Positions 581-11,642 of a stretch of 13,326 bases of DNA are shown in pieces. Position 1 is the stretch's first letter, and every line of letters begins with the position of its first letter. The notes under the pieces were generated by a model. That model was not told the DNA's origin and did no database searches. It was given only the letters and a program-made list of their open reading frames with translations. This DNA comes from a virus. The position numbers were made by a program, and so were the translations under genes. Where the stretch lies: the UHGV virus genome UHGV-0203667, one strand, 5' to 3'.

Positions 581-610
581 CCTATTTATCCCCTATTTAA
601 TGCCTATTTA
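581..610. repeat. Three direct CCTATTTA repeats at exact 11-bp phasing (581, 592, 603), with a degenerate copy at about 561
   Basis: Read directly: cCCTATTTAtc cCCTATTTAat gCCTATTTAtt. One repeat per helical turn suggests a phased protein-binding or bent-DNA site. Confidence 0.6.
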
Positions 611-691
611 TTGATTTAATCCGTTTTATGTCACAACCGCCCGGTTGACAGAGTAATAGAGAGGGTGTAACCCTTTTTCGTAATACTAATA

Positions 692-707
692 AAATCAATA
701 AGTTAGC
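692..707. repeat. 16-bp exact repeat AAATCAATAAGTTAGC (partner at 8423-8438)
   Basis: The identical 16-mer occurs at both sites on the same strand. Each lies shortly downstream of the end of a plus-strand gene (531 and 8411). Confidence 0.6.
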
Positions 708-761
708 TTAATAAGCCTTTTCTCTATTTTTGTCAAATTTAACATACCCTAAAAAACTGCA

Positions 762-795
762 AAATCTGGCTGCAAGATTATCTGCAGCTGGATTT
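762..795. other. Imperfect 11-bp hairpin or inverted repeat
   Basis: AAATC tg GCTGCA agattatc TGCAGC tg GATTT. Confidence 0.4.
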
Positions 796-981
796 CTTAC
801 ACCTCATTTTGTGGTATCACCCTGGCTAGTTTGTGCATAAATTGAACAGTTTTTAACATTTCCTCCTCACCTGGTAACCACACAAAAAGCTAAAAACGAG
901 GCACAGATAATCTTAGAGGCCTGTTTTCTTGTTATCACTCTGGAAACGCCGTAGAAGTGATTTTGATGAAAGATGACCTAC

Positions 982-1000
982 CCTATTACACCCCTATTTT
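982..1000. repeat. Second pair of CCTATT(A/T) repeats at 11-bp phasing (982, 993)
   Basis: cCCTATTAca ccCCTATTTT; the same core and phase as the 581-610 cluster. Confidence 0.45.
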
Positions 1001-2011
1001 TTGTTATCACAATTGCATCCTGTGCGGTGTATGGCTATGTACTGAAAGCGGTTTTGGGTGTGGGTGTCAGAAATATCCATTAGCGGTATTAATACCTGTC
1101 AGATGTTCGTCTGAGGTGCCAGGCAGGCGCTCCCCTACCTCCCTTTTTTCTTCTAACAATTCTCAAATATCCGACCACTACTGACCACGTTGCTATTATG
1201 TTAATTCTTAAGCTTTGCTGTATGTTGTGCACATTATTTATTCAGGTGGCTGTACGTAAATTCTGTGCCCACTGATCATGATTTTTAAATCAGATTTTGT
1301 AGTGCGCTTTATTAGTGTAGATAAGATCTATTATGTTAAATGCAATTTTCCCAACCCTTCAAATCAATGACTTACGTGTAAGCATGCACTAACACCCCAC
1401 ACAGCACATTAGCCGTATAGATGGCTATACCCCACATATTTGATTGTTTTGTAGTCATTCCCCTGATCATTTAACCAGTATAGCTTGTTATCTGCAGACC
1501 ACAAAATAGGAATTTACATCTGATTAACATAATCTGTTAGCATGATCACTATTACCCACACAACAATAACCCCATGTAAGCCTCTTCAGGCAATTTATCG
1601 GCGTGTTGGTGTGAACAGTCTTTCATGTTCTTTATGAATGCATTGTCCTGTGTGAGGGAAGGATGGACTGCCTCAGGGGCCATACTTATGATGCCCGGTC
1701 AACATAGCTATTGATAAAATCAACGGGTGTTGATCTACATATTTCCCACACATGAGAGGAAATCAGAGCAAAGAGAGAGGAGAGAGGTTTGTTAGTCACA
1801 TATGGTGATTTGAGCTCATCTCAAACCTTCTACGAAGGCCTTTGCTAGTCAAAATAGGTCAATTGACGGCTAATACAGAGTAAAAAATCAGATGCAATCA
1901 CTCCCCACCTGTTGGGATTAACGGCCCCGAGTCAAGGCCTATGCAACGAGGGTATTTCCTACAACCCCTTTCAGTCATACTCAGGCACCACACCCCGGTA
2001 AATATTACCCT

Positions 2012-2320
2012 ACTACCCCGGAAGATTTCTCCGCACTACCTGTAAAATATTTTTACTACTAACACCCTCGAGACGAGGGCTATTTGCACGAGTTTAACGC
2101 TCTCGGGAAGAGCTATAGGCGATTCTACCTGTGAAGAATTTTCACACCTGTGTGTTTATACAGTCATACTTTCCTGTTTTGCAGTCATTGCACCCATGAT
2201 ACACAGCCTCTAACTACTGAAGATTTCTCACTACTTAACCACCATACCTACCCACACCCCTGAGAATTTCTCACCACTACTACCGAAGATTTCTCACTAG
2301 TACCCCTGAGAATTTCTCAC
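2012..2320. repeat. Iteron field: six direct repeats with core GA(A/G)(G/A)ATTTCTCAC, mostly flanked by ACTAC; candidate replication-origin or regulator-binding array
   Basis: Cores sit at 2021 (GAAGATTTCTCcg), 2219, 2262, 2285 and 2308, plus a degenerate palindromic variant GTGAAGAATTTTCAC at 2131-2145. The last three cores are exactly 23 bp apart. A short AT-rich stretch (taaaatatttttac, about 2043-2056) lies inside the field. A wHTH initiator-like gene lies about 1.1 kb downstream. Confidence 0.65.
2146..2165. promoter_or_regulatory. Candidate second LexA box (weaker)
   Basis: ACCTGTGTGTTTATACAGTC has the full CTGT-N8-ACAG core. It matches 14/20 positions of TACTGTATATATATACAGTA and lies inside the iteron field. 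Confidence 0.3.
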
Positions 2321-2342
2321 TCTAATAGATAAAGGAATAGAT

Positions 2343-2387
2343 CAATAAAAAGACCTCCCCCCTAACCCCCAGGGGGAATGGGGAGGG
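2343..2387 (-). terminator. Strong rho-independent terminator readable only on the minus strand, with no minus-strand CDS upstream of it
   Basis: The minus-strand RNA reads CCUCCCC auu CCCC cug GGGG uua GGGGAGG followed by UCUUUUUAUU. On the plus strand the hairpin has no U tract after it. Confidence 0.75.
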
Positions 2388-2389
2388 AT

Positions 2390-2830
2390 CAGAGAGTGGG
2401 GAAGGTTTTCTAAGGGAAAAGCTTAACCCACAAATGAAAGCCTAAAGAGCATGAGCGACTCTTTAGGCAATCTGTGTGGGGTGACAATGTATTCCATACA
2501 TGACACGTCACCCAATTGTGTGTGGGGAGCGTAGTGCTATAGCACGTAGCTTTATAGTGTGGAGTCCGGATAAGAGACTTCTGTTTCCAATCCGGACCGT
2601 TTAAGCGAGTGGTTTCTCGCGCGGGTGCACGCACACATATATAAAGGATACACTCATAAATCGAAAATAAGGCCCCTAAATGGCCTTCTGGCTGCATTAA
2701 CCTGTGTGAGTAGTGCAATTGCATTACCTGACCTCTAAATCGCGTTAGAATCGATTTTAGAGCGCTTAAGGCAAAAGTGCTCTCCCTCCCTTGTGGACTT
2801 GCTTGTACCTATAGCACACCTAAATGATAA
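2390..2830. ncRNA. Candidate structured non-coding RNA or structured DNA region (strand unresolved)
   Basis: There is no credible ORF. Hairpins and palindromes:
- 10-bp perfect hairpin at 2440-2468.
- 13-bp hairpin at 2479-2513, flanked by direct TGTGTGGGG repeats (2473-2481 and 2519-2527).
- 12-bp palindrome GTGCTATAGCAC at 2534-2545.
- 8-bp perfect hairpin at 2564-2597.
- Hairpin at 2669-2687.
- 10-bp palindrome TGCAATTGCA at 2715-2724.
- Two mutually exclusive hairpins at 2733-2762 and 2759-2783. The latter has a G-T pair that only works on the plus strand. Confidence 0.35.
2658..2687 (-). terminator. Possible second minus-strand intrinsic terminator
   Basis: The minus-strand RNA reads AAGGCC auuuagg GGCCUU followed by AUUUUCGAUUU. 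On the plus strand there is no U tract. Confidence 0.4.
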
Positions 2831-2839
2831 TAATTCTCA

Positions 2840-2868
2840 TTGACAATTGGTTGACAATATGATAAGAT
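2840..2868 (+). promoter_or_regulatory. Sigma70-type promoter P1 (TTGACA-17-TAAGAT)
   Basis: -35 TTGACA at 2840-2845, 17-bp spacer, -10 TAAGAT at 2863-2868. A second TTGACAAT sits 11 bp downstream (2851-2858) and a third at 3031-3038. Confidence 0.65.
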
Positions 2869-2903
2869 TATAAATAGGGGGAGAAACAGATCCGGAGGTC
2901 AAT

Positions 2904-3053
2904 GTGGAAATTACAGATGTAATAGCGATCATCAACCTGGCTGTACTGTGGTGCGGTGTTGCCTACATAGCCGGAGTAACTGCAATCGACAACCTTGAAG
3001 AAAAAATGATAGATAAATACAAAAAGATTGTTGACAATCTCGCAAATAGCTGA
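2904..3053 (+). CDS. Small (49 aa) single-pass membrane protein, not in the supplied ORF track (GTG start)
   Basis: GGAGG (2895-2899) plus 4 nt precedes GTG at 2904. The translation is VEITDVIAIINLAVLWCGVAYIAGVTAIDNLEEKMIDKYKKIVDNLANS, ending at TGA 3051-3053. It has a hydrophobic N-terminal helix and a charged C-terminus. The gene has its own promoter (P1) and a downstream terminator. Confidence 0.55.
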   Translation: MEITDVIAIINLAVLWCGVAYIAGVTAIDNLEEKMIDKYKKIVDNLANS

Positions 3054-3059
3054 TAAAAT
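3031..3059 (+). promoter_or_regulatory. Sigma70-type promoter P2 (TTGACA-17-TAAAAT) embedded in the 3' end of the small ORF
   Basis: -35 at 3031-3036, 17-bp spacer, -10 TAAAAT at 3054-3059. It would start a transcript at about 3066, upstream of the 3109-3141 terminator and the 3183 gene. Confidence 0.5.
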
Positions 3060-3108
3060 ATAAATCATAGGGTAATTCTCATCATAGTGAATTTCCTTAA
3101 ACAAAAAT

Positions 3109-3141
3109 GCGGGGGCTTGTCTTAAGTTCCCGTTTCTTTTT
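3109..3141 (+). terminator. Rho-independent terminator or attenuator immediately upstream of the rep-like operon
   Basis: GCGGGGGCUU gucuu AAGUUCCCGU forms a 10-bp stem that includes three G-U pairs, so it folds only as plus-strand RNA. It is followed by UUCUUUUU. Confidence 0.7.
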
Positions 3142-3182
3142 AACCGTATATCATTCTGATTCGAATTATAGGAGGCCCCGTT

Positions 3183-3398
3183 ATGGCAAGCAACGGACCG
3201 ACTAGCCCCCTGGTTAGCTGGACTACTGATGAGATCGTCGAAAACGTGCTCAGCGGCAAGTTTTATAAAAATTCTGTTTATGCTTTTATCCGTCGTAATA
3301 AAGGAAAATATCCACACATTGAAGCGGCAATTTTAGAACTGAACCGTCTTCGCCTTGAGCGTGAGCTGGCTAAATACACCAACAACATTGATAAATAA
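3183..3398 (+). CDS. Small hypothetical protein (71 aa)
   Basis: AGGAGG sits 7 nt upstream of the ATG. The C-terminal half is basic and helical. The gene is immediately followed by the rep-like gene. Confidence 0.7.
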   Translation: MASNGPTSPLVSWTTDEIVENVLSGKFYKNSVYAFIRRNKGKYPHIEAAILELNRLRLERELAKYTNNIDK

Positions 3399-3411: not shown

Positions 3412-4308
3412 ATGGCAAGTAATTACGGGGAGGTTTTTAATCCCCATTTCGAACGCCTCATTCAGTACACTTTTGATAAACCAGTAGCAACAACAATTGC
3501 TAATAAAAAGACTGGAAAAACAAAAGAGCGATTTAATTTAGACCTGATAGAGGTAACAATTTATGGAAAAATGGCAGGTTTTCATTTAAACGGGCAAGAA
3601 ATATTTATCTCAGAGCAGACCTTAGCAAAAATATGTGGTGTGAGTGATAGAAAAATCATCGAATCTATCAAAACTCTGGAAAATGCCGGGCTTATTTCTA
3701 AAGAAAGCCGGAAAGGTATGTCTAACATTTACAAACTGTTAATTACTCCTTCTCAAATCTGCAAAATGTGTGATGAACAGAAGATAGAACCAATGAGTAA
3801 TGCAGGTGGTGAAGATAAACAGCCTCAGGAAGCCCCAAAACAAGCCACACAGCAAGCTAAAAAGGCTAAAGTAGTGCAATTGCCTACCCAAGACACTAAA
3901 GCGCCTCAAATTAACGCTGTTAGTGACAAGCCACGCCGGGGCCGTCCTGTGAAAGATGTAACCGATGGGGGCTGGATTGTCCTGGGTGAGAGTGAAGCTA
4001 AAGATAGAATGCGCTCACTGTGGGAAAGCAAATACAAAGGTTTAAATAAACGTTGCCCGATCCGTTTGTCAAAGATTCAGGAGGATTTTTACACCACAGA
4101 GGAGGTAATACGCCATAAAGGCAATAGAGACGGTGAAATCTGGAAACCGGAAGAATACTGGCATTTAACCAGACCTGTTTTTATTTTTGCAAATAAACTT
4201 ATTGGGATGGGATTTGAAATATTGTTAGATCAAACTTACGGAGATTATCCTGAAATATTGTGGAGAAATGTTAGAAAGAATAAAAAAGGCATTTTAGAGT
4301 TTAGATAA
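3412..4308 (+). CDS. Putative replication-initiator/O-like DNA-binding protein: N-terminal winged-HTH, Q/A/K-rich linker with AT-hook (RRGRP), C-terminal domain
   Basis: The start is moved from 3355 to ATG 3412 (GGGGGA SD; removes the overlap with the 3183 gene). The motif ISEQTLAKICGVSDRKIIESIKTLENAGLISKESRKG is typical of wHTH initiator or DnaD-like N-termini. KPRRGRPVKD is encoded around 3931-3948. The iteron field lies upstream. Confidence 0.6.
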   Translation: MASNYGEVFNPHFERLIQYTFDKPVATTIANKKTGKTKERFNLDLIEVTIYGKMAGFHLNGQEIFISEQTLAKICGVSDRKIIESIKTLENAGLISKESRKGMSNIYKLLITPSQICKMCDEQKIEPMSNAGGEDKQPQEAPKQATQQAKKAKVVQLPTQDTKAPQINAVSDKPRRGRPVKDVTDGGWIVLGESEAKDRMRSLWESKYKGLNKRCPIRLSKIQEDFYTTEEVIRHKGNRDGEIWKPEEYWHLTRPVFIFANKLIGMGFEILLDQTYGDYPEILWRNVRKNKKGILEFR

Positions 4309-6308: not shown

Positions 6309-8411
6309 ATGGCAATGAAGGAAGTCGCCAGACTAACAAACGTTATTTACTGGGACTCTGATAAATCCTCCTGGCGAAAAGAAGTTAAGCGCTTGGAGGA
6401 TTATAAAAAATCCTGGAAGAAAGCTACCGACGATATAGCTAAAGCGGATTTTAAATCTAATCAGGCTGTGCTCAGAACACAAAGAACACGCGCTAAGGTG
6501 GAAGAGCAGATCGCCAGAGCACAGAAGAAACAACGTGCTCAGGCTGTCAGCCGTCTGACCGGGGGCAATAATCCGGAGCTCTCCTCTATGCGCAAGTTCT
6601 ATCAGCAGCAAGCCAGAGAGGCCGCCAGACAACAAAAACTGTTAGATCGTAGTGTTGGAGATGTTCAGCACAGAAAAGCACGTGTAGGGGCCAACAGTGC
6701 ACGAATCAGCAGCATGTTTGATGGCTCCCTGGTTGCTCAGTTCCAATCCAGAATTCAAAGAGTTAATGCTGATTATGCTAAAGGGGCTATTAACCTGCAG
6801 ACCTATAATCAGAAAATGGCCCGACTCAGATCTGAAATGAAGATGGCAACAGCAGAGGCCGGAAAATTTCAGAGCAAACTGGATAGAGTTGCGATCACAG
6901 GATCTAAGCTGCATGACAACCTGGGGAAACTAAATTCTACTTTAGGCAAGATAGCTATTGGCCTTACTGCCGCTGGCTGGGGTGTTCAGCGTGCTGTTAG
7001 TGGTGCTATGGGTAGCCTTGCAGATCGCAACAGTGCCTACTTCGGTTTGATGGCACAGAACAAGGATGATAAAGCCAAGACTGATCAGCAGATGGCCTAC
7101 GTCAAAAGAATCTCTTATGACTACGGGATGGATCAGCGTGAGACCGAAGGCGGTTTTATGCGCTTTGCTGCAGCCACACCGAGCATAGAAGAGAAAGATA
7201 AACAGGCTCTTTTTGAGGCTATGGCTATTAAAGGTCGCTCAGTGGGTGCTACCGCAGACCAACAGAACAGGGCTATCGTTGCACTAGGGCAAATATATAG
7301 CAAGGGCGGTCGGGTGTATGCGGAAGAGCTTAAGGGCCAACTTTCTGAAGCCCTGGCAGGTTCTCAGGTAGATTTCACTAAGGCCGCTATCGATGCCGGA
7401 GTCATCAAGAAAGAGGAAGAATTTAATAAAGCCCTTGAAGATGGCAAGATCACCATGGATAAGCTTCTCCCTTCTTTGGTGAAAATCTGGTCTGCAGCCA
7501 AGAATACGAAAGCCTTTGCTGAATCCATGAAACAGCCAGAAGTAGCAATGCAGCGCATGAAAAACAGCTTTAACGAGCTGGCGATTCAGTTTATGGGTGT
7601 TGTGGATCCTGCCGATGGCGTTGTTAGCTTATCTGAATCTCTGATCTCCATCTTCGAAGACCTCACCACTGATATGGACGGCAGCGGGAGCGCGGCAAAA
7701 CAGTTTGGTGAAGCAGTCGGTGCTGCCATGCGGGAGATCATGTATTGGGTAGGCTTCGCTAAGGGATATATCGAGGTCAAGGCTAAAGAGTTCGGCATGA
7801 CCGGATCAGAGGTTGGCGAGCTTATCGGGAAACTAGTAGTCGGCTTAGCTGGTCTGAAAGTTATTACCACACTGCTTTCCCCTCTAACCGGATTTGTTTC
7901 ACTTGTCACCCAACTGATAGCCTTGTTAGGTAAAATCCCTGGTATGAGCAAGCTTATGGCATCTGCCTCAGGTGGAACGGCAACAGGAGCAGCAGTTATC
8001 AGTGCAGGCTCTAACGCTGAAAGAAGCTTCATTGATGGCAAGACGCAGGAAATGAGTAAGGAGAACTCAAAACAGGGTGCTTTGTTTGAGCTGGGAAGAT
8101 TTGTCAGCAATGCTGGCGCACTGTTCACACCTGGCGGTGATACTGGTCCTTTGTTCGATCAGGTCAAAGGCTGGTTTAATAAAGGGCCAACATTGACAGT
8201 AGACACTGGCATCAGACCAACACCAACGGGTGGCATAGCTATCCAGAATGGTGGATATCAACCAGTCCAAGTAAATGTAGCCCCACAAGGTGAGATTTCC
8301 GGCAAATGGGAGATAACCATCGATGAGGGGGGAATTGCCAGGGTGATCCAGAAGGAAGTCAGCGATCAGTTGGATTGGAAAGCCACACAGGAATCTAACC
8401 AGCTTTTCTAA
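6309..8411 (+). CDS. Phage tail tape measure protein (700 aa)
   Basis: The N-terminus is a long K/R/Q/A-rich coiled coil. The central region GQIYSKGGRVYAEELKGQLSEALAG is typical of the tape-measure core domain. A hydrophobic segment LIGKLVVGLAGLKVITTLLSPLTGFVSLVTQLIALLG follows, then a Gly-rich C-terminus. A GAGG SD lies upstream. Confidence 0.85.
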   Translation: MAMKEVARLTNVIYWDSDKSSWRKEVKRLEDYKKSWKKATDDIAKADFKSNQAVLRTQRTRAKVEEQIARAQKKQRAQAVSRLTGGNNPELSSMRKFYQQQAREAARQQKLLDRSVGDVQHRKARVGANSARISSMFDGSLVAQFQSRIQRVNADYAKGAINLQTYNQKMARLRSEMKMATAEAGKFQSKLDRVAITGSKLHDNLGKLNSTLGKIAIGLTAAGWGVQRAVSGAMGSLADRNSAYFGLMAQNKDDKAKTDQQMAYVKRISYDYGMDQRETEGGFMRFAAATPSIEEKDKQALFEAMAIKGRSVGATADQQNRAIVALGQIYSKGGRVYAEELKGQLSEALAGSQVDFTKAAIDAGVIKKEEEFNKALEDGKITMDKLLPSLVKIWSAAKNTKAFAESMKQPEVAMQRMKNSFNELAIQFMGVVDPADGVVSLSESLISIFEDLTTDMDGSGSAAKQFGEAVGAAMREIMYWVGFAKGYIEVKAKEFGMTGSEVGELIGKLVVGLAGLKVITTLLSPLTGFVSLVTQLIALLGKIPGMSKLMASASGGTATGAAVISAGSNAERSFIDGKTQEMSKENSKQGALFELGRFVSNAGALFTPGGDTGPLFDQVKGWFNKGPTLTVDTGIRPTPTGGIAIQNGGYQPVQVNVAPQGEISGKWEITIDEGGIARVIQKEVSDQLDWKATQESNQLF

Positions 8412-8438: not shown

Positions 8439-8460
8439 CTGACCGGATAAACTCCAGGCA

Positions 8461-8493
8461 AGAAAAAAGCCCCTAAGTGTTAACAAAGGGGCT
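8461..8493 (-). terminator. Rho-independent terminator, strong on the minus strand and weak at best on the plus strand
   Basis: The minus-strand RNA reads AGCCCCU uuguuaacacuu AGGGGCU followed by UUUUUUCU. On the plus strand the stem is followed by CUUCUCC. Confidence 0.75.
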
Positions 8494-8913
8494 CTTCTCC
8501 GGTATCCTTTTGATGCGGGGCAAAACCTGCTAACAAAAATCAACCTCTCGCGAGACTAATGTTAGCAGGTTGCCGGAAGGTAAGTCAACTCCGGCCTATA
8601 AACCTTAAAGCGACTATAAAATTGCCCCGCCAATTGTGATGATCCGACCTTTGAGGCGGGTCCGGTGCCCAGGGGGTGCAGTGATGCACAAACCAGGCAA
8701 CGATAAACAGGCTAACAGTGATAGCGGCGCTCTCTCAGCGCACTAAATCCTAACCAGTCCGGGAAAGAGGCTGGCTCTATCGACCGCTCATGCACGGGAC
8801 AATGCATACCTGATAAAGGATTCTCACAAGGGACCAATCGCGAGAAAAGAAGTGGAAAGGGGCTGATTTGTGGTGTATCACTACGGCCTCAAAAGACACC
8901 CTATTGCCTTTTT
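8494..8913 (-). ncRNA. ORF-free, highly structured roughly 420-nt region between the last minus-strand CDS and its terminator; candidate structured 3' UTR or ncRNA
   Basis: The supplied track has no ORF here. A perfect three-way junction spans 8515-8630: outer stem GCGGGGCAA/TTGCCCCGC (9 bp), inner stem ACCTGCTAACA/TGTTAGCAGGT (11 bp, with a 24-nt loop holding the palindrome TCTCGCGAGA), and inner stem GCCGGA/TCCGGC (6 bp). Further hairpins are GTGCA gtga TGCAC (8676-8689) and GCGCT ctctc AGCGC (8727-8741). The strand is assigned from the terminator orientation only. Confidence 0.4.
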
Positions 8914-9372
8914 TCAGCCTCTCCCCACATTTGACCAGTATTTGATTGCACCGATCAAATCATCATAGTGGCGCATTGCATCATTGAAGCCTTTATAGCT
9001 TGCCCATTGTGGGGAAACCTTGTTGTTGCTGAATTGCCCACTAATCAGGATAGTCTCCAGAATGTCGGCGTATCGCTTGCCAATTCGCTTCCTGACGGCC
9101 TCAGAGCTCCCACCCTTTACGATTGCATTAATCAGGGCTTTTGTGTGTCTCAGGCTCTCATAGAGCATTGCAGCGTGGGCAGATTCCATAAAGGAGCGCT
9201 TAGGCAGATCACCCCACCCCTCAGAATGAATTGCTGCCAATGTGGCGTAATTCAGGCCGCTATAGTGTTTCCCGTCATCCCAGCCAACCGCTACACCTTC
9301 CATCTGTGAGAGCTCTTTATGCAGCTTATCCATCATGCGCTTGTCTATGGTGCAACGGACTTTCGGACTCAT
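8914..9372 (-). CDS. Putative head-tail joining or tail-completion type virion protein (152 aa)
   Basis: ATGA start/stop overlap with the upstream gene. The motif AAIHSEGWGDLPKRSF resembles the HEFG..P.RPF motif of HK97 gp10-like and morphogenesis proteins. This was recognised by eye only. Confidence 0.6.
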   Translation of the reverse strand: MSPKVRCTIDKRMMDKLHKELSQMEGVAVGWDDGKHYSGLNYATLAAIHSEGWGDLPKRSFMESAHAAMLYESLRHTKALINAIVKGGSSEAVRKRIGKRYADILETILISGQFSNNKVSPQWASYKGFNDAMRHYDDLIGAIKYWSNVGRG

Positions 9373-10181
9373 TTGTTGATCTCCGTGATGTCATCAAGCA
9401 ACATGTTGGCCTTATCAATCATCGTTTCGTGGAACTCATTCGACACGACAGACTTATCACCTGCTGCAATCTTTCCCGCTGCCTCTCCCTGTGCATATTC
9501 CCCGCGATGCTTAGCCCTGGTTGATTTCGTAGCAGCATTGCCAGCGTTACTACCCTCTTTAGCACTGTTAACAGCACCCTTTTGCTGTGTTTTATTCACC
9601 TTCTTACTGTTAGTGAAAACTCCGGCATTTTCGACCATCTTCACCTTGAAGGTGCGGAATTCTTCAAAAGTGCAATCAATAGTGATGCAGTCGCCAGAGG
9701 AAGAGCTACGCTTAACTTCACATTTCGTCATGATGAAGTTCTCAAGGAGTCCGACATCTTCACCCACCAGGCTGATAATCTGGCGCTTGTCTCTCATTTC
9801 CATAAGTGCCTGAACAGCGGCAGCAGGGCGCATAGATTCACGGGGATTATCTGGATCAGTGTTCCGGTCGATGTAGTTCTCTTTCCGGATGATATGAGGG
9901 GAAGAGGTAATAATACCCGTAAAGCTGACAGATTTATCTTTAATGACGGCATGGTCTGACATGGTGGTGCCATCCTCGACCGCATAGCTCGATTTCTCAA
10001 CAGGGAACGAATAGCTGACATCAGAGATAGAGTCAAAGAAGATAGCCACATTATCGGTATAGTTGAAGCCATCCATCATATTTTTGTTTTGTGAATATCC
10101 CCCACACATAACAGTGAATGCAGGAGATCTCGACTCAGCTTGTTTTGCAGCTGTCAGAGCATCACTAGCCATATTAAACAT
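9369..10181 (-). CDS. Putative virion structural protein (270 aa) with K/A/G-rich C-terminal region; the N-terminal half is reminiscent of Dit-like/baseplate-type domains (weak call)
   Basis: GGAGG lies upstream. The start may be ATG 10181 or ATG 10172 (MASDALT), which has better SD spacing. It sits inside the structural operon. Confidence 0.6.
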   Translation of the reverse strand: MFNMASDALTAAKQAESRSPAFTVMCGGYSQNKNMMDGFNYTDNVAIFFDSISDVSYSFPVEKSSYAVEDGTTMSDHAVIKDKSVSFTGIITSSPHIIRKENYIDRNTDPDNPRESMRPAAAVQALMEMRDKRQIISLVGEDVGLLENFIMTKCEVKRSSSSGDCITIDCTFEEFRTFKVKMVENAGVFTNSKKVNKTQQKGAVNSAKEGSNAGNAATKSTRAKHRGEYAQGEAAGKIAAGDKSVVSNEFHETMIDKANMLLDDITEINK

Positions 10182-10587: not shown

Positions 10588-11631
10588 TTATTTAGCCTTG
10601 GCTTTTGCCAGAGCAGCGGCGGCGGTGTTTTTAACACTCACTTTAACCACCACCTCGGGCATCATATTCATAAATGCGTATGAGCTCTCGCAAAAGACCT
10701 CGCGCTTAGCTCTTGAATCTTGCATATACATGAAAGCTTCACGTGCAGCGCCGTTTGCCAGCTGCAGATTGCGAGCGCAAGGGCCAAAAAATTGAGTATA
10801 AACACCCATATCGCCCAGTGCATAAGGCTGGAATTGTGGGACCAGATAAGCAGTATTCTCTGGCAGACTATCCATTTGCACCACACGCAGGGCTAAGCCC
10901 GGAATGCGGAAGGTCGGGAAGCCCGGCAGAATATCCTCAGGGAACATCAGACCTTTGTCGGTAATGTTCTGATTGCCGAACAACAGCACTTTACGAAGCA
11001 GCTCGTCAGTCTGAATTGCAGCAAAGAGTTCAGCACGGCAGAACAGGGTGAAACCACGCAGGGCACGAACGACACCACGCTGTTTAACCTTGCTCAGTGC
11101 AACCAGGTCCTGCAGCTGTTTAAGGATATCTTGAGCTAGATCCACTTCAGAGGTGGACTGTTCTACTCCCAGCAGTTCGCACACATTCAGTTCTTTACCC
11201 TTGGTGAGGATAATTTTGTTCTCAAAGAGAGCAAGCTGGCGTGCTTCTTCGTGGGTCTGGCGTAAGCCTTCGCCAAGCTGAATAACACGACGAGCGGTTA
11301 CAGACTCTAAATTCTCTTCGGAATCTTTGCCCGGAACACGGATACCTTGCCAGTCTGACGGGAATATGGCCGAGCTGGCGGCTGTAAAGGCCATGTCGCC
11401 CGTGCCCGTTTCACGCTCATCTGCGGTAATGGTAGCCATCTGTTCACCGTAGCGCGGATACTGACCGAAAGCGGTTTGTTTCACCCTGCGAACTTTGTCG
11501 TACTCAAATTTGAACGTCGAAGAATAGACGGTAGTATTAAACACGTTCATTGCTGAAATAATCTGGTTATCCAGCGGGATATCTTTAATCAGACCACACA
11601 GATCGCGAACTTCGAATTCTTTCTTAGCCAT
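10588..11631 (-). CDS. Major capsid protein, lambda gpE-like family (347 aa)
   Basis: The start is reset to MAKKEFEV at 11631, with AAGGAGG 6 nt upstream. The track start at 11730 gives a Cys-rich extension that overlaps the upstream gene. The size, the position after a roughly 110-aa decoration-like gene, and the C-terminal pattern (...ESSYAFMNMMPEVVVKVSV) resemble lambda gpE (...SAPLMLLADPDEFVSVQLA). Confidence 0.75.
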   Translation of the reverse strand: MAKKEFEVRDLCGLIKDIPLDNQIISAMNVFNTTVYSSTFKFEYDKVRRVKQTAFGQYPRYGEQMATITADERETGTGDMAFTAASSAIFPSDWQGIRVPGKDSEENLESVTARRVIQLGEGLRQTHEEARQLALFENKIILTKGKELNVCELLGVEQSTSEVDLAQDILKQLQDLVALSKVKQRGVVRALRGFTLFCRAELFAAIQTDELLRKVLLFGNQNITDKGLMFPEDILPGFPTFRIPGLALRVVQMDSLPENTAYLVPQFQPYALGDMGVYTQFFGPCARNLQLANGAAREAFMYMQDSRAKREVFCESSYAFMNMMPEVVVKVSVKNTAAAALAKAKAK

Positions 11632-11642
11632 TTTCAACCTCC

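Follow-up and report, generated by a model that had tools for sequence, protein, structure and literature searches.

The subject of this report is a cluster of short DNA repeats in UHGV-0203667, a 13,326-nucleotide sequence catalogued as a virus genome, which was analyzed over its full length and which we call the window. The repeats, an array of four near-palindromic units at 2213..2320, lie in a long non-coding region, where they are followed by an AT-rich patch (2321..2352) and a GC-rich inverted repeat (2353..2395). From the end of the array, some 1.1 kb of hairpin-rich non-coding DNA, with two promoters and two small open reading frames (ORFs), lead to the start codon of a plus-strand gene at 3412..4308, which encodes a 298-residue protein that we call Rep. 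On the strength of sequence comparisons, we conclude with good confidence that the array at 2213-2320 supplies the iterons of an origin from which the element replicates, an origin of the kind found in RepA_N plasmids and in PLE, a phage satellite of Vibrio cholerae, and that Rep is its initiator.

The own-type core, GA(A/G)(G/A)ATTTCTCAC, occurs in four exact plus-strand copies at 2219, 2262, 2285 and 2308, and repeat finding returned a single family of 21-nt units at 2213, 2256, 2279 and 2302, spaced by 43, 23 and 23 bp. Pattern search and repeat finding thus bear out the initial annotation, which had listed these four cores and had noted that the last three are 23 bp apart. Described as 23-bp units from the same four starts, with no strand assigned, these are the iterons that we call type A, with cores TGA(A/G)(G/A)ATTTCTCA(C) starting at 2219, 2262, 2285 and 2308. 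With up to two mismatches allowed, the pattern GARRATTTCTCAC matched the window at 11 places, of which nine fall in 2021-2320; shuffles that preserve dinucleotide composition gave 1.36 matches on average and 6 at most, so that none of 200 reached 11. The two alternating subtypes described previously, ACTAC(T/C)GAAGATTTCTCAC and ACCCCTGAGAATTTCTCAC, are both present, as is a palindromic variant at 2131-2145, GTGAAGAATTTTCAC. A further copy that had been proposed at 2021 is indeed core-like, with two mismatches (GAAGATTTCTCCG), but, far from being an isolated extra copy of this repeat, it forms the middle of a second trio of units in 23-bp phase, to which we return below. The units are semi-palindromic and converge on an A/T tract (TGAGAA-T-TTCTCA, which is a perfect 6-1-6 palindrome, GTAAAATATTTTAC, CGGTAAATATTACCG and others). 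Iteron origins generically contain at least three direct repeats, each about 17-23 bp long and spaced by about two helical turns, and here there are four units at intervals of 43, 23 and 23 bp. The spacing of "about two helical turns" that had been claimed needs some correction, since 23 bp is about 2.2 turns, which leaves neighboring sites turned by about 70 degrees and not exactly in phase.

A second general property of such origins is an easily melted AT-rich region next to the repeats, and this is found at 2321-2352, in a patch that abuts the last iteron and that we regard as a candidate DNA-unwinding element (no strand assigned). It is 78% AT, versus 55% for the window, and contains two AATAGAT motifs and one GATC; within 1800-2900 its AT content is the joint highest, and over 600-3200 it is among the four least stable 40-mers. 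An AT-rich patch had been placed inside the repeat field, and an AT stretch does exist there, at about 2040-2056, but it is itself an iteron-like unit, and the origin-like patch lies outside the field. The GC-rich inverted repeat that comes next, CCTCCCCCCTAACCCCCAGGGGGAATGGGGAGGG (2353..2395, minus strand), is a terminator-like hairpin followed by a T-run on the minus strand (site 2378-2356).

The most telling property of the array is what happens to it in relatives. We compared 25 sequences, namely the window, nine related plasmids rotated to the window start, and 15 loci retrieved through diverse homologues of Rep (the set comprises the window, L001-L011 and L013-L025). In all 25, four units are found at -106/-108, -63/-65, -40/-42 and -17/-19 from a TAATAGATA-type anchor, in L014 with three of the four visible as the contig is cut, and the spacing of 43/44-23-23 is retained. 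The anchor, which starts the AT patch, is CTAATAGATAAA in 24 of the sequences and CTAATAAATAAA in L013, and the GC hairpin then follows, retained with changed loops in L007 and L013. Conservation in relatives, which had been named as a test of the iteron proposal, therefore extends to position, copy number and spacing; the sequence of the units varies and falls into six array types. Type A has the core TGARRATTTCTCA (window, L001, L014), type E CGGARRATTTCTCCG (L005, L015), type B CTGTMAAAATATTTTAC (L002, L010, L011, L013, L016, L017, L024, L025), type C CTGTTGGAATTTCCCAC (L003, L006, L018-L021), type D CGGTAAATATTWCCG (L004, L007, L008) and type F GGTAAAAATTACCG (L009, L022, L023). To keep its layout (position, number of copies, spacing) through such turnover of sequence is the behavior of a binding-site array that co-evolves with its binding protein.

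That the binding protein is Rep, as had been proposed, is supported by the match between array types and variants of its putative recognition helix in these 25 sequences. The relevant segment consists of the 12 residues that follow the motif ISEQTLA, i.e., residues 78-89 of Rep (SDRKIIESIKTL, encoded at 3643..3678 on the plus strand), which an AlphaFold2 model assigns to helix three of a winged helix (residues 79-91). The segment is SDRKIIESIKTL with type A arrays, SDRKIRDSIKSL with type E, SRPT[VI]I[NK][SA]IKSL in two variants with type B, DRGKIVSAIKSL with type C, TEKTVRSAIKTL with type D and TPKTVRTAIHSL with type F; every array type thus has a helix variant of its own (two for B), and no variant is shared between two array types. 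Types A and E differ by three helix residues (I84R, E85D, T88S), and the corresponding change in the site is symmetric on both half-sites, from TGA..TCA to GGA..TCC. Other parts of the element do not follow the array. Array type is independent of the type of the Rep C-terminal domain (C1 and C3 are found with A, C1 and C2 with E, and all three C-types with B as well as with C) and of the initiator wing, one type being found with different wings. Three other proteins of the element served as controls. Of these, orf71 and HTH86 are identical in L001 and L005 despite their different arrays (A and E); HTH86 is likewise identical in L002 (B) and L004 (D), and orf49 is near-invariant. It is by this covariation that the element-encoded protein is identified as the probable cognate initiator. 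Since the 25 sequences are related, the counts are not independent events, and independent support for the link between helix and array comes from about six recombinant backgrounds and from the replacement of the initiator in L007 (NZ_CP020521.1). This plasmid encodes an unrelated 303-residue initiator, annotated as MarR family, whose N-terminal domain is only 24-32% identical to the others, and it alone has an extra array of three 36-nt repeats just past the hairpin, in about 500 bp of extra non-coding DNA, with the type D array retained as well. L007 is a natural swap of a replicon module (L007 13006-13118 and 13235-13347). Together, these patterns suggest that the N-terminal domain of the initiator and the iterons form an exchangeable specificity module, with at least six array types in circulation in the family.

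The initial annotation had also proposed that the element replicates as a plasmid, and this is supported by its relatives. The window matches five plasmids in PLSDB and seven plasmids of complete E. coli genomes, which cover 81-95% of it at 91-93% identity; every one of them is circular and, with one exception, 13.2-13.7 kb long, from which it follows that the window is one whole circular replicon of about 13.3 kb. Among 5,426 complete E. coli genomes, seven carry a relative, always as a separate replicon, and there are no chromosomal copies. More broadly, Rep homologues form at least 100 clusters at 90% identity, nearly all on contigs of about 13.3-14.4 kb with a few on short fragments or longer contigs, and the hosts of the family are E. 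coli, E. albertii and Shigella. The PLSDB record reads "non-mobilizable" and gives no replicon type. The term phage-plasmid, which had been applied to the element, is an overstatement, as there are four recognizable phage structural genes and no complete phage gene set: among the ORFs scanned, we detected no gene for a terminase, portal, sheath, tail tube or lysis protein, none for partition (ParA, ParM, TubZ), a helicase, a primase or a loader, and no match of any ORF besides rep to a replication family. In 50,697 phage genomes, Megablast with the whole window found nothing, and a scan of IMG/VR with Rep found no relative. Satellite-plasmids combine extrachromosomal maintenance, a partial module of phage structural genes and dependence on a helper phage for transfer; the element shows the first two, and is probably a satellite kept as a plasmid. 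Our literature search, which did not extend to most subscription journals, found no published description of this Escherichia family. One relative, L008 (NZ_CP043822.1, 39,610 bp), is a head-to-tail trimer of a 13.2-kb unit in which one copy has broken genes, and is either a real multimer or concatemer or an artefact of long-read assembly.

Rep itself is a modular protein. The AlphaFold2 model, with a mean predicted local distance difference test (pLDDT) score of 69.5 overall and about 75-90 in the folded parts, consists of an N-terminal winged-helix domain (residues ~10-125), a disordered linker (residues 130-181) and a helical C-terminal domain (residues ~182-298). According to the model, the N-terminal domain has a DnaD-NTD/RepA_N-like fold. 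PHROG families of replication initiators, O-like initiators and DnaD-like loaders match residues ~46-182 with E values of 1e-10 to 1e-7; a Pfam scan gave HTH_36 and weak single-HTH families only, and Rep_3 (PF01051), RepA_N (PF06970, E <= 0.01) and Phage_rep_O did not match. A Rep_3-type initiator was considered and rejected, given the lack of a Pfam Rep_3 match and a model with one winged helix-turn-helix (wHTH) and an unrelated C-terminal domain instead of tandem WH1-WH2 domains. Relatives shuffle the N-terminal domain, the linker with its conserved motif QEAPKQATQQ and the C-terminal domain, of which there are three types. Seven N-terminal groups are combined with the three C-types (plus L007), and the two domains recombine independently. 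The C-terminal domain (window 3937-4308), which reached a pLDDT of 84 when modelled alone, had no fold or family match. A small ORF directly 3' of rep encodes 48 residues with types C1 and C2 and 52-54 residues with C3, which hints that its product is a partner of the C-terminal domain.

Upstream of rep, a strong sigma-70-like promoter (TTGACA-17-TAAGAT, 2840..2868, plus strand, 10/12 with an extended -10 TG) heads the operon orf49-orf71-rep, and a second one (TTGACA-17-TAAAAT, 11/12, also with an extended -10 TG) is found at 3031-3059 on the plus strand. Directly after the -10 elements of these promoters are TATAAATA (2869-2876) and TATAAATC (3059-3066). We take TATAAATA to be the T4-type late-promoter consensus, and on that basis late transcription of the rep operon driven by a helper phage is conceivable.

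The promoters bear on the alternative that survives best, namely that Rep is a transcriptional regulator with the repeats as its operators, the true origin being at another place or contributed by a helper phage. Near-palindromic sites are typical of dimeric HTH repressors, a search of the PDB with a Rep profile returned only weak matches to generic wHTH regulators (MarR, GntR and CodY at E 0.04-0.2), and RefSeq/PGAP names for Rep relatives are "HTH protein" or MarR or GntR family regulator. However, over 500 bp separate the array from the nearest strong promoter, none of the own-type matches in the window lies near or overlaps the promoters at 2840-2868 and 3031-3059, and four phased copies adjoining an AT-rich patch are the architecture of an origin. 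Moreover, the PHROG and fold matches favor initiators, and the element persists as a plasmid without another candidate for replication. The repeats may serve as operators in addition to initiation, but are unlikely to do so exclusively.

At lambda cosB and at plasmid centromeres, too, wHTH proteins bind direct repeats in phase, which raises the alternative that the array is a packaging signal (cosB- or pac-like, recognized by the small subunit of a terminase) or a site of centromere type for a winged helix like that of TubR or ParR. The element carries phage structural genes and must be packaged somehow, and TubR is among the weak PDB sequence matches of Rep (E 0.11). Yet a signal for a helper terminase should be conserved, and the array instead diversifies together with an element-encoded protein; none of the terminase, ParA, ParM or TubZ genes that such a site would serve was detected among the ORFs scanned, and the best family matches of Rep are replication initiators. 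We therefore regard this alternative as very improbable. Still harder to sustain is the view that the repeats are non-functional remnants of slippage or recombination. In its favor, the surrounding 2.3 kb are ORF-free and mosaic, single heterologous units there resemble leftovers, and in L007 an array has been kept although the cognate protein is absent. Yet position, copy number and spacing are preserved in 25 of 25 sequences while the sequence was replaced wholesale six times, and strict covariation with a helix is not expected of junk.

A replication origin with Rep as its initiator thus remains the explanation that we prefer, and the following sequence of events would account for the data. 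Initiator dimers would bind each near-palindromic 13-15-bp core through the recognition helix (residues 78-89) of the N-terminal winged helix; the four sites, at intervals of 43, 23 and 23 bp, would assemble into a nucleoprotein complex beside the AT patch at 2321-2352; and the duplex would open at this patch. The C-terminal domain, on its flexible linker, might then recruit replisome components of the host or of a helper phage, the element having no recognizable helicase, primase or loader of its own; the outcome would be theta-mode replication and the persistence of the 13.3-kb circle as a plasmid in E. coli. Several points weigh against this explanation. DnaA boxes (TTWTNCACA) occur in the window only at 414, 832 and 12307, none of them less than 1 kb from the array, and their number is not above chance. 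The cumulative GC-skew minimum at about 2250-2550 speaks for an origin there, but is weak evidence in a 13-kb replicon, where gene orientation confounds the skew. Ordinary regulators share the fold class of the N-terminal domain, the sequences that covary are related to one another, and the type D array of L007, which has no type D initiator, indicates that an array can outlast its cognate protein. Finally, the distance of 1.1 kb from the array to rep and the lack of own-type sites at the rep promoters mean that the autoregulation usual in iteron plasmids is not evident.

Comparison with known systems highlights important similarities and differences. The nearest is the PLE replicon of V. cholerae, in which a RepA_N initiator acts on an iteron origin (PMC7145576, PMC8263062). 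PLE is a satellite-type element, as the present one probably is, and both have an initiator with an N-terminal DnaD-NTD-like DNA-binding domain and a C-terminal domain without detectable homologues. In both, semi-palindromic iterons centered on an A/T tract lie in a non-coding region apart from the gene, and the N-terminal domain and the origin co-vary as a swappable module while the C-terminal parts recombine independently (PMC7145576, PMC8263062). PLE is chromosomally integrated and replicates only during ICP1 infection, whereas the present element is a free plasmid, and PLE has three iterons of about 30 bp and two known specificity groups, whereas here there are four units of about 23 bp, at least six groups and heterologous single units. 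There is also no detectable sequence similarity between the two, and Pfam RepA_N is not matched; PLE RepA is itself without BLASTP-level similarity to plasmid RepA_N proteins (PMC7145576). Staphylococcal RepA_N plasmids (pSK41, pTZ2162; PDB 4pql, 4pt7, 4pta, 5kbj) resemble the element in their wHTH, their semi-palindromic direct repeats and the order of N-terminal domain, linker and C-terminal domain; their wHTH is dimeric and their replication is of theta mode, as we suppose for the element. They differ in that Rep has no sequence-level membership of their family and that its C-terminal domain has no DnaD-like or other fold match. These plasmids are from Gram-positive hosts and their iterons typically lie inside the rep gene.

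At the lambda origin, the O protein binds as dimers, through its N-terminal wHTH, to four near-palindromic iterons, next to which come an AT-rich region and a palindrome, in this order. The element shares this order of iterons, AT-rich region and palindrome, and the PHROG family "replication initiation O-like" is matched at E 1e-8. Unlike the lambda origin, which is inside the O gene, the array is 1.1 kb upstream of rep, and there is neither a Pfam Phage_rep_O match nor a gene for a lambda P-like loader. Rep_3 initiators have tandem WH1-WH2 domains and act as monomers on asymmetric iterons, which have DnaA boxes in their vicinity. Like the Rep_3 iteron plasmids (pPS10, R6K, F, P1, RK2), the element has repeats phased at about 22-23 bp beside an AT-rich region and an initiator encoded in cis, with specificity (incompatibility) groups set by pairs of Rep and iteron; unlike them, it has a single wHTH, palindromic sites, no Rep_3 match and no DnaA box near the array. 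As an element, it may be compared with the satellite-plasmids cf-PISP and PISP, which have been reported only in Vibrio and are circles of 11-16 kb with parA/repA and PICI-type head modules (PMC13230959). The resemblance lies in a small circular extrachromosomal element with some phage capsid genes and plasmid replication functions; the differences are that ours occurs in Escherichia and Shigella, has no detected par genes, and has capsid, tape measure, tail-tube initiator and neck proteins related to those of rV5-like phages.

Another property of the locus is that it contains sites that seem to belong to other members of the family. The distal trio (1993..2061, no strand assigned) consists of iteron-like units in 23-bp phase that differ from one another: a D-like unit at 1993 (CCCCGGTAAATATTACC), an E-like unit at 2016 (CCCCGGAAGATTTCTCCG) and a B-like unit at 2039 (CCTGTAAAATATTTTTAC). 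Each has no more than one mismatch to the four-copy core of other relatives, respectively D (L004/L008), E (L005/L015) and B (L002/L010 and others). The palindromic variant belongs to what we call the H unit, CTACCTGTGAAGAATTTTCACACCTGTG (2125..2152, no strand assigned), which is single-copy in most relatives, lies at about -194 from the anchor (-193 to -253 across loci) and is present in 14 of the 24 loci scanned. There is also a C-like unit, CCTGTTGGGATT...TTTCCTACA (1908..1965, no strand assigned), which is split by an insertion of about 35 bp at 1920-1954 (AACGGCCCCGAGTCAAGGCCTATGCAACGAGGGTA). Comparison of the window and L005 with L001, L002, L004, L007 and L008 revealed that only the former two have this insertion; most other relatives have an uninterrupted unit. 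On the upstream side of its main array, every element carries single units that correspond to array types found elsewhere in the family, in variable number and order. These may be relics of module swaps or of recombination at the level of units, or else functional decoys; with a background divergence of about 5%, their intactness fits relics and decoys alike.

A possible source of selection for such diversity was found among phages. The only phage homologue of the Rep wHTH is a 328-residue protein, full-length in six Phapecoctavirus records, of which gp053 of Escherichia phage Mt1B1_P17 (NC_052662.1 20722-21708; L026 2102-3088) is an example. It has two tandem Rep-like wHTH domains, the second of which is closest to types E (41%, L005) and A (39%, window), and a C-terminal nuclease domain of T5orf172/MUG113/GIY-YIG type, which matches the PHROG endonuclease phrog_681 (E 2.4e-18) and has Pfam matches just under the cut-offs. 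The ICP1 protein Odn (Gp88) is an origin-directed nuclease that mimics PLE RepA_N and cuts PLE iterons (PMC8263062). By its predicted domains, gp053 would resemble Odn in fusing a Rep-like wHTH to a nuclease and differ from it in having two tandem wHTH domains. The first 50 kb of Mt1B1_P17 around gp053 contain no exact iteron-like site and no cluster of such sites. One could read these observations jointly, taking the diversity of helices and iterons as the footprint of an arms race like that of PLE and ICP1 and the foreign phased single iterons as decoys against competitors, a reading that is speculative and that we put forward with considerable reserve. In its arms-race part, Odn-like nucleases of rV5-like phages or Phapecoctavirus, with gp053 as a candidate, may cut satellite origins and so select for switches of specificity; in its decoy part, the 1993-2061 units may serve as a weapon of incompatibility, by titrating initiators of rival elements in the same cell.

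The assignment of an origin and an initiator concerns a widespread family of E. coli and Shigella plasmids of about 13.5 kb that carry phage capsid and tail genes. The array itself is, on our reading, of a known kind, a RepA_N/DnaD-NTD-like iteron origin, and the plasmid family is apparently undescribed. The family offers a natural specificity table in which six helix variants are paired with six DNA sites, including the near-minimal switch from A to E, a change from T/A to G/C at symmetric positions. With such a table, DNA recognition by wHTH domains and plasmid incompatibility become testable by swapping a few residues or bases. Were the satellite and arms-race readings both true, the family would provide an E. 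coli model of satellite origins attacked by phage nucleases, a genetically tractable counterpart of PLE and ICP1 with helper and antagonist phages in standard collections.

The non-coding region in which the array lies has other features. The 2.3-kb stretch at 532-2903 is without conserved ORF, is kept in all relatives and is mosaic. Its 700-1600 part has 95% identity, on par with conserved genes; the idea that a block at 620-1790 is more conserved than genes was rejected, since pairwise identity is 95% versus 94-97% in well-conserved coding sequences and the appearance was an effect of majority-column scoring. The motif YTGTGTGRG has five occurrences, all within 532-2903, versus 0.37 expected, and the stretch contains three terminator-like hairpins on the minus strand (2687-2669, 2468-2440, 2378-2356). 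An Rfam E-value scan of the window gave no match in this region, a tRNA search of the window found none, and blastn of 532-2900 against phage genomes with distant settings gave two trivial short matches only. Elsewhere, a sub-threshold Rfam match to ctRNA_p42d at 8458-8498 on the minus strand, in the gap after the tape measure gene (23.6 bits versus a gathering score of 50, E 0.24), is probably due to chance.

The four phage structural genes encode a tape measure protein (6309-8411), a neck/tail-completion protein (8914-9372, minus strand), a Dit-like/tail-tube-initiator protein (9369-10181, minus strand) and a major capsid protein (10588-11634, minus strand). Their closest counterparts are in rV5-like Vequintavirus, to which the tail-tube initiator is 50% identical and the capsid and tape measure proteins 25% identical. 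At the start of the window, searches of the gene at 1-531 gave no Pfam or PHROG match, and PADLOC found nothing for this gene, its alternative alleles or the three operon ORFs. The gene lies downstream of the 86-residue HTH gene in a variable cassette that may be a cargo hotspot: in the window it encodes a predicted membrane protein of 176 residues, and other alleles at this position encode an unrelated protein of 195 (MNIKTIIAA...) or 236 residues.

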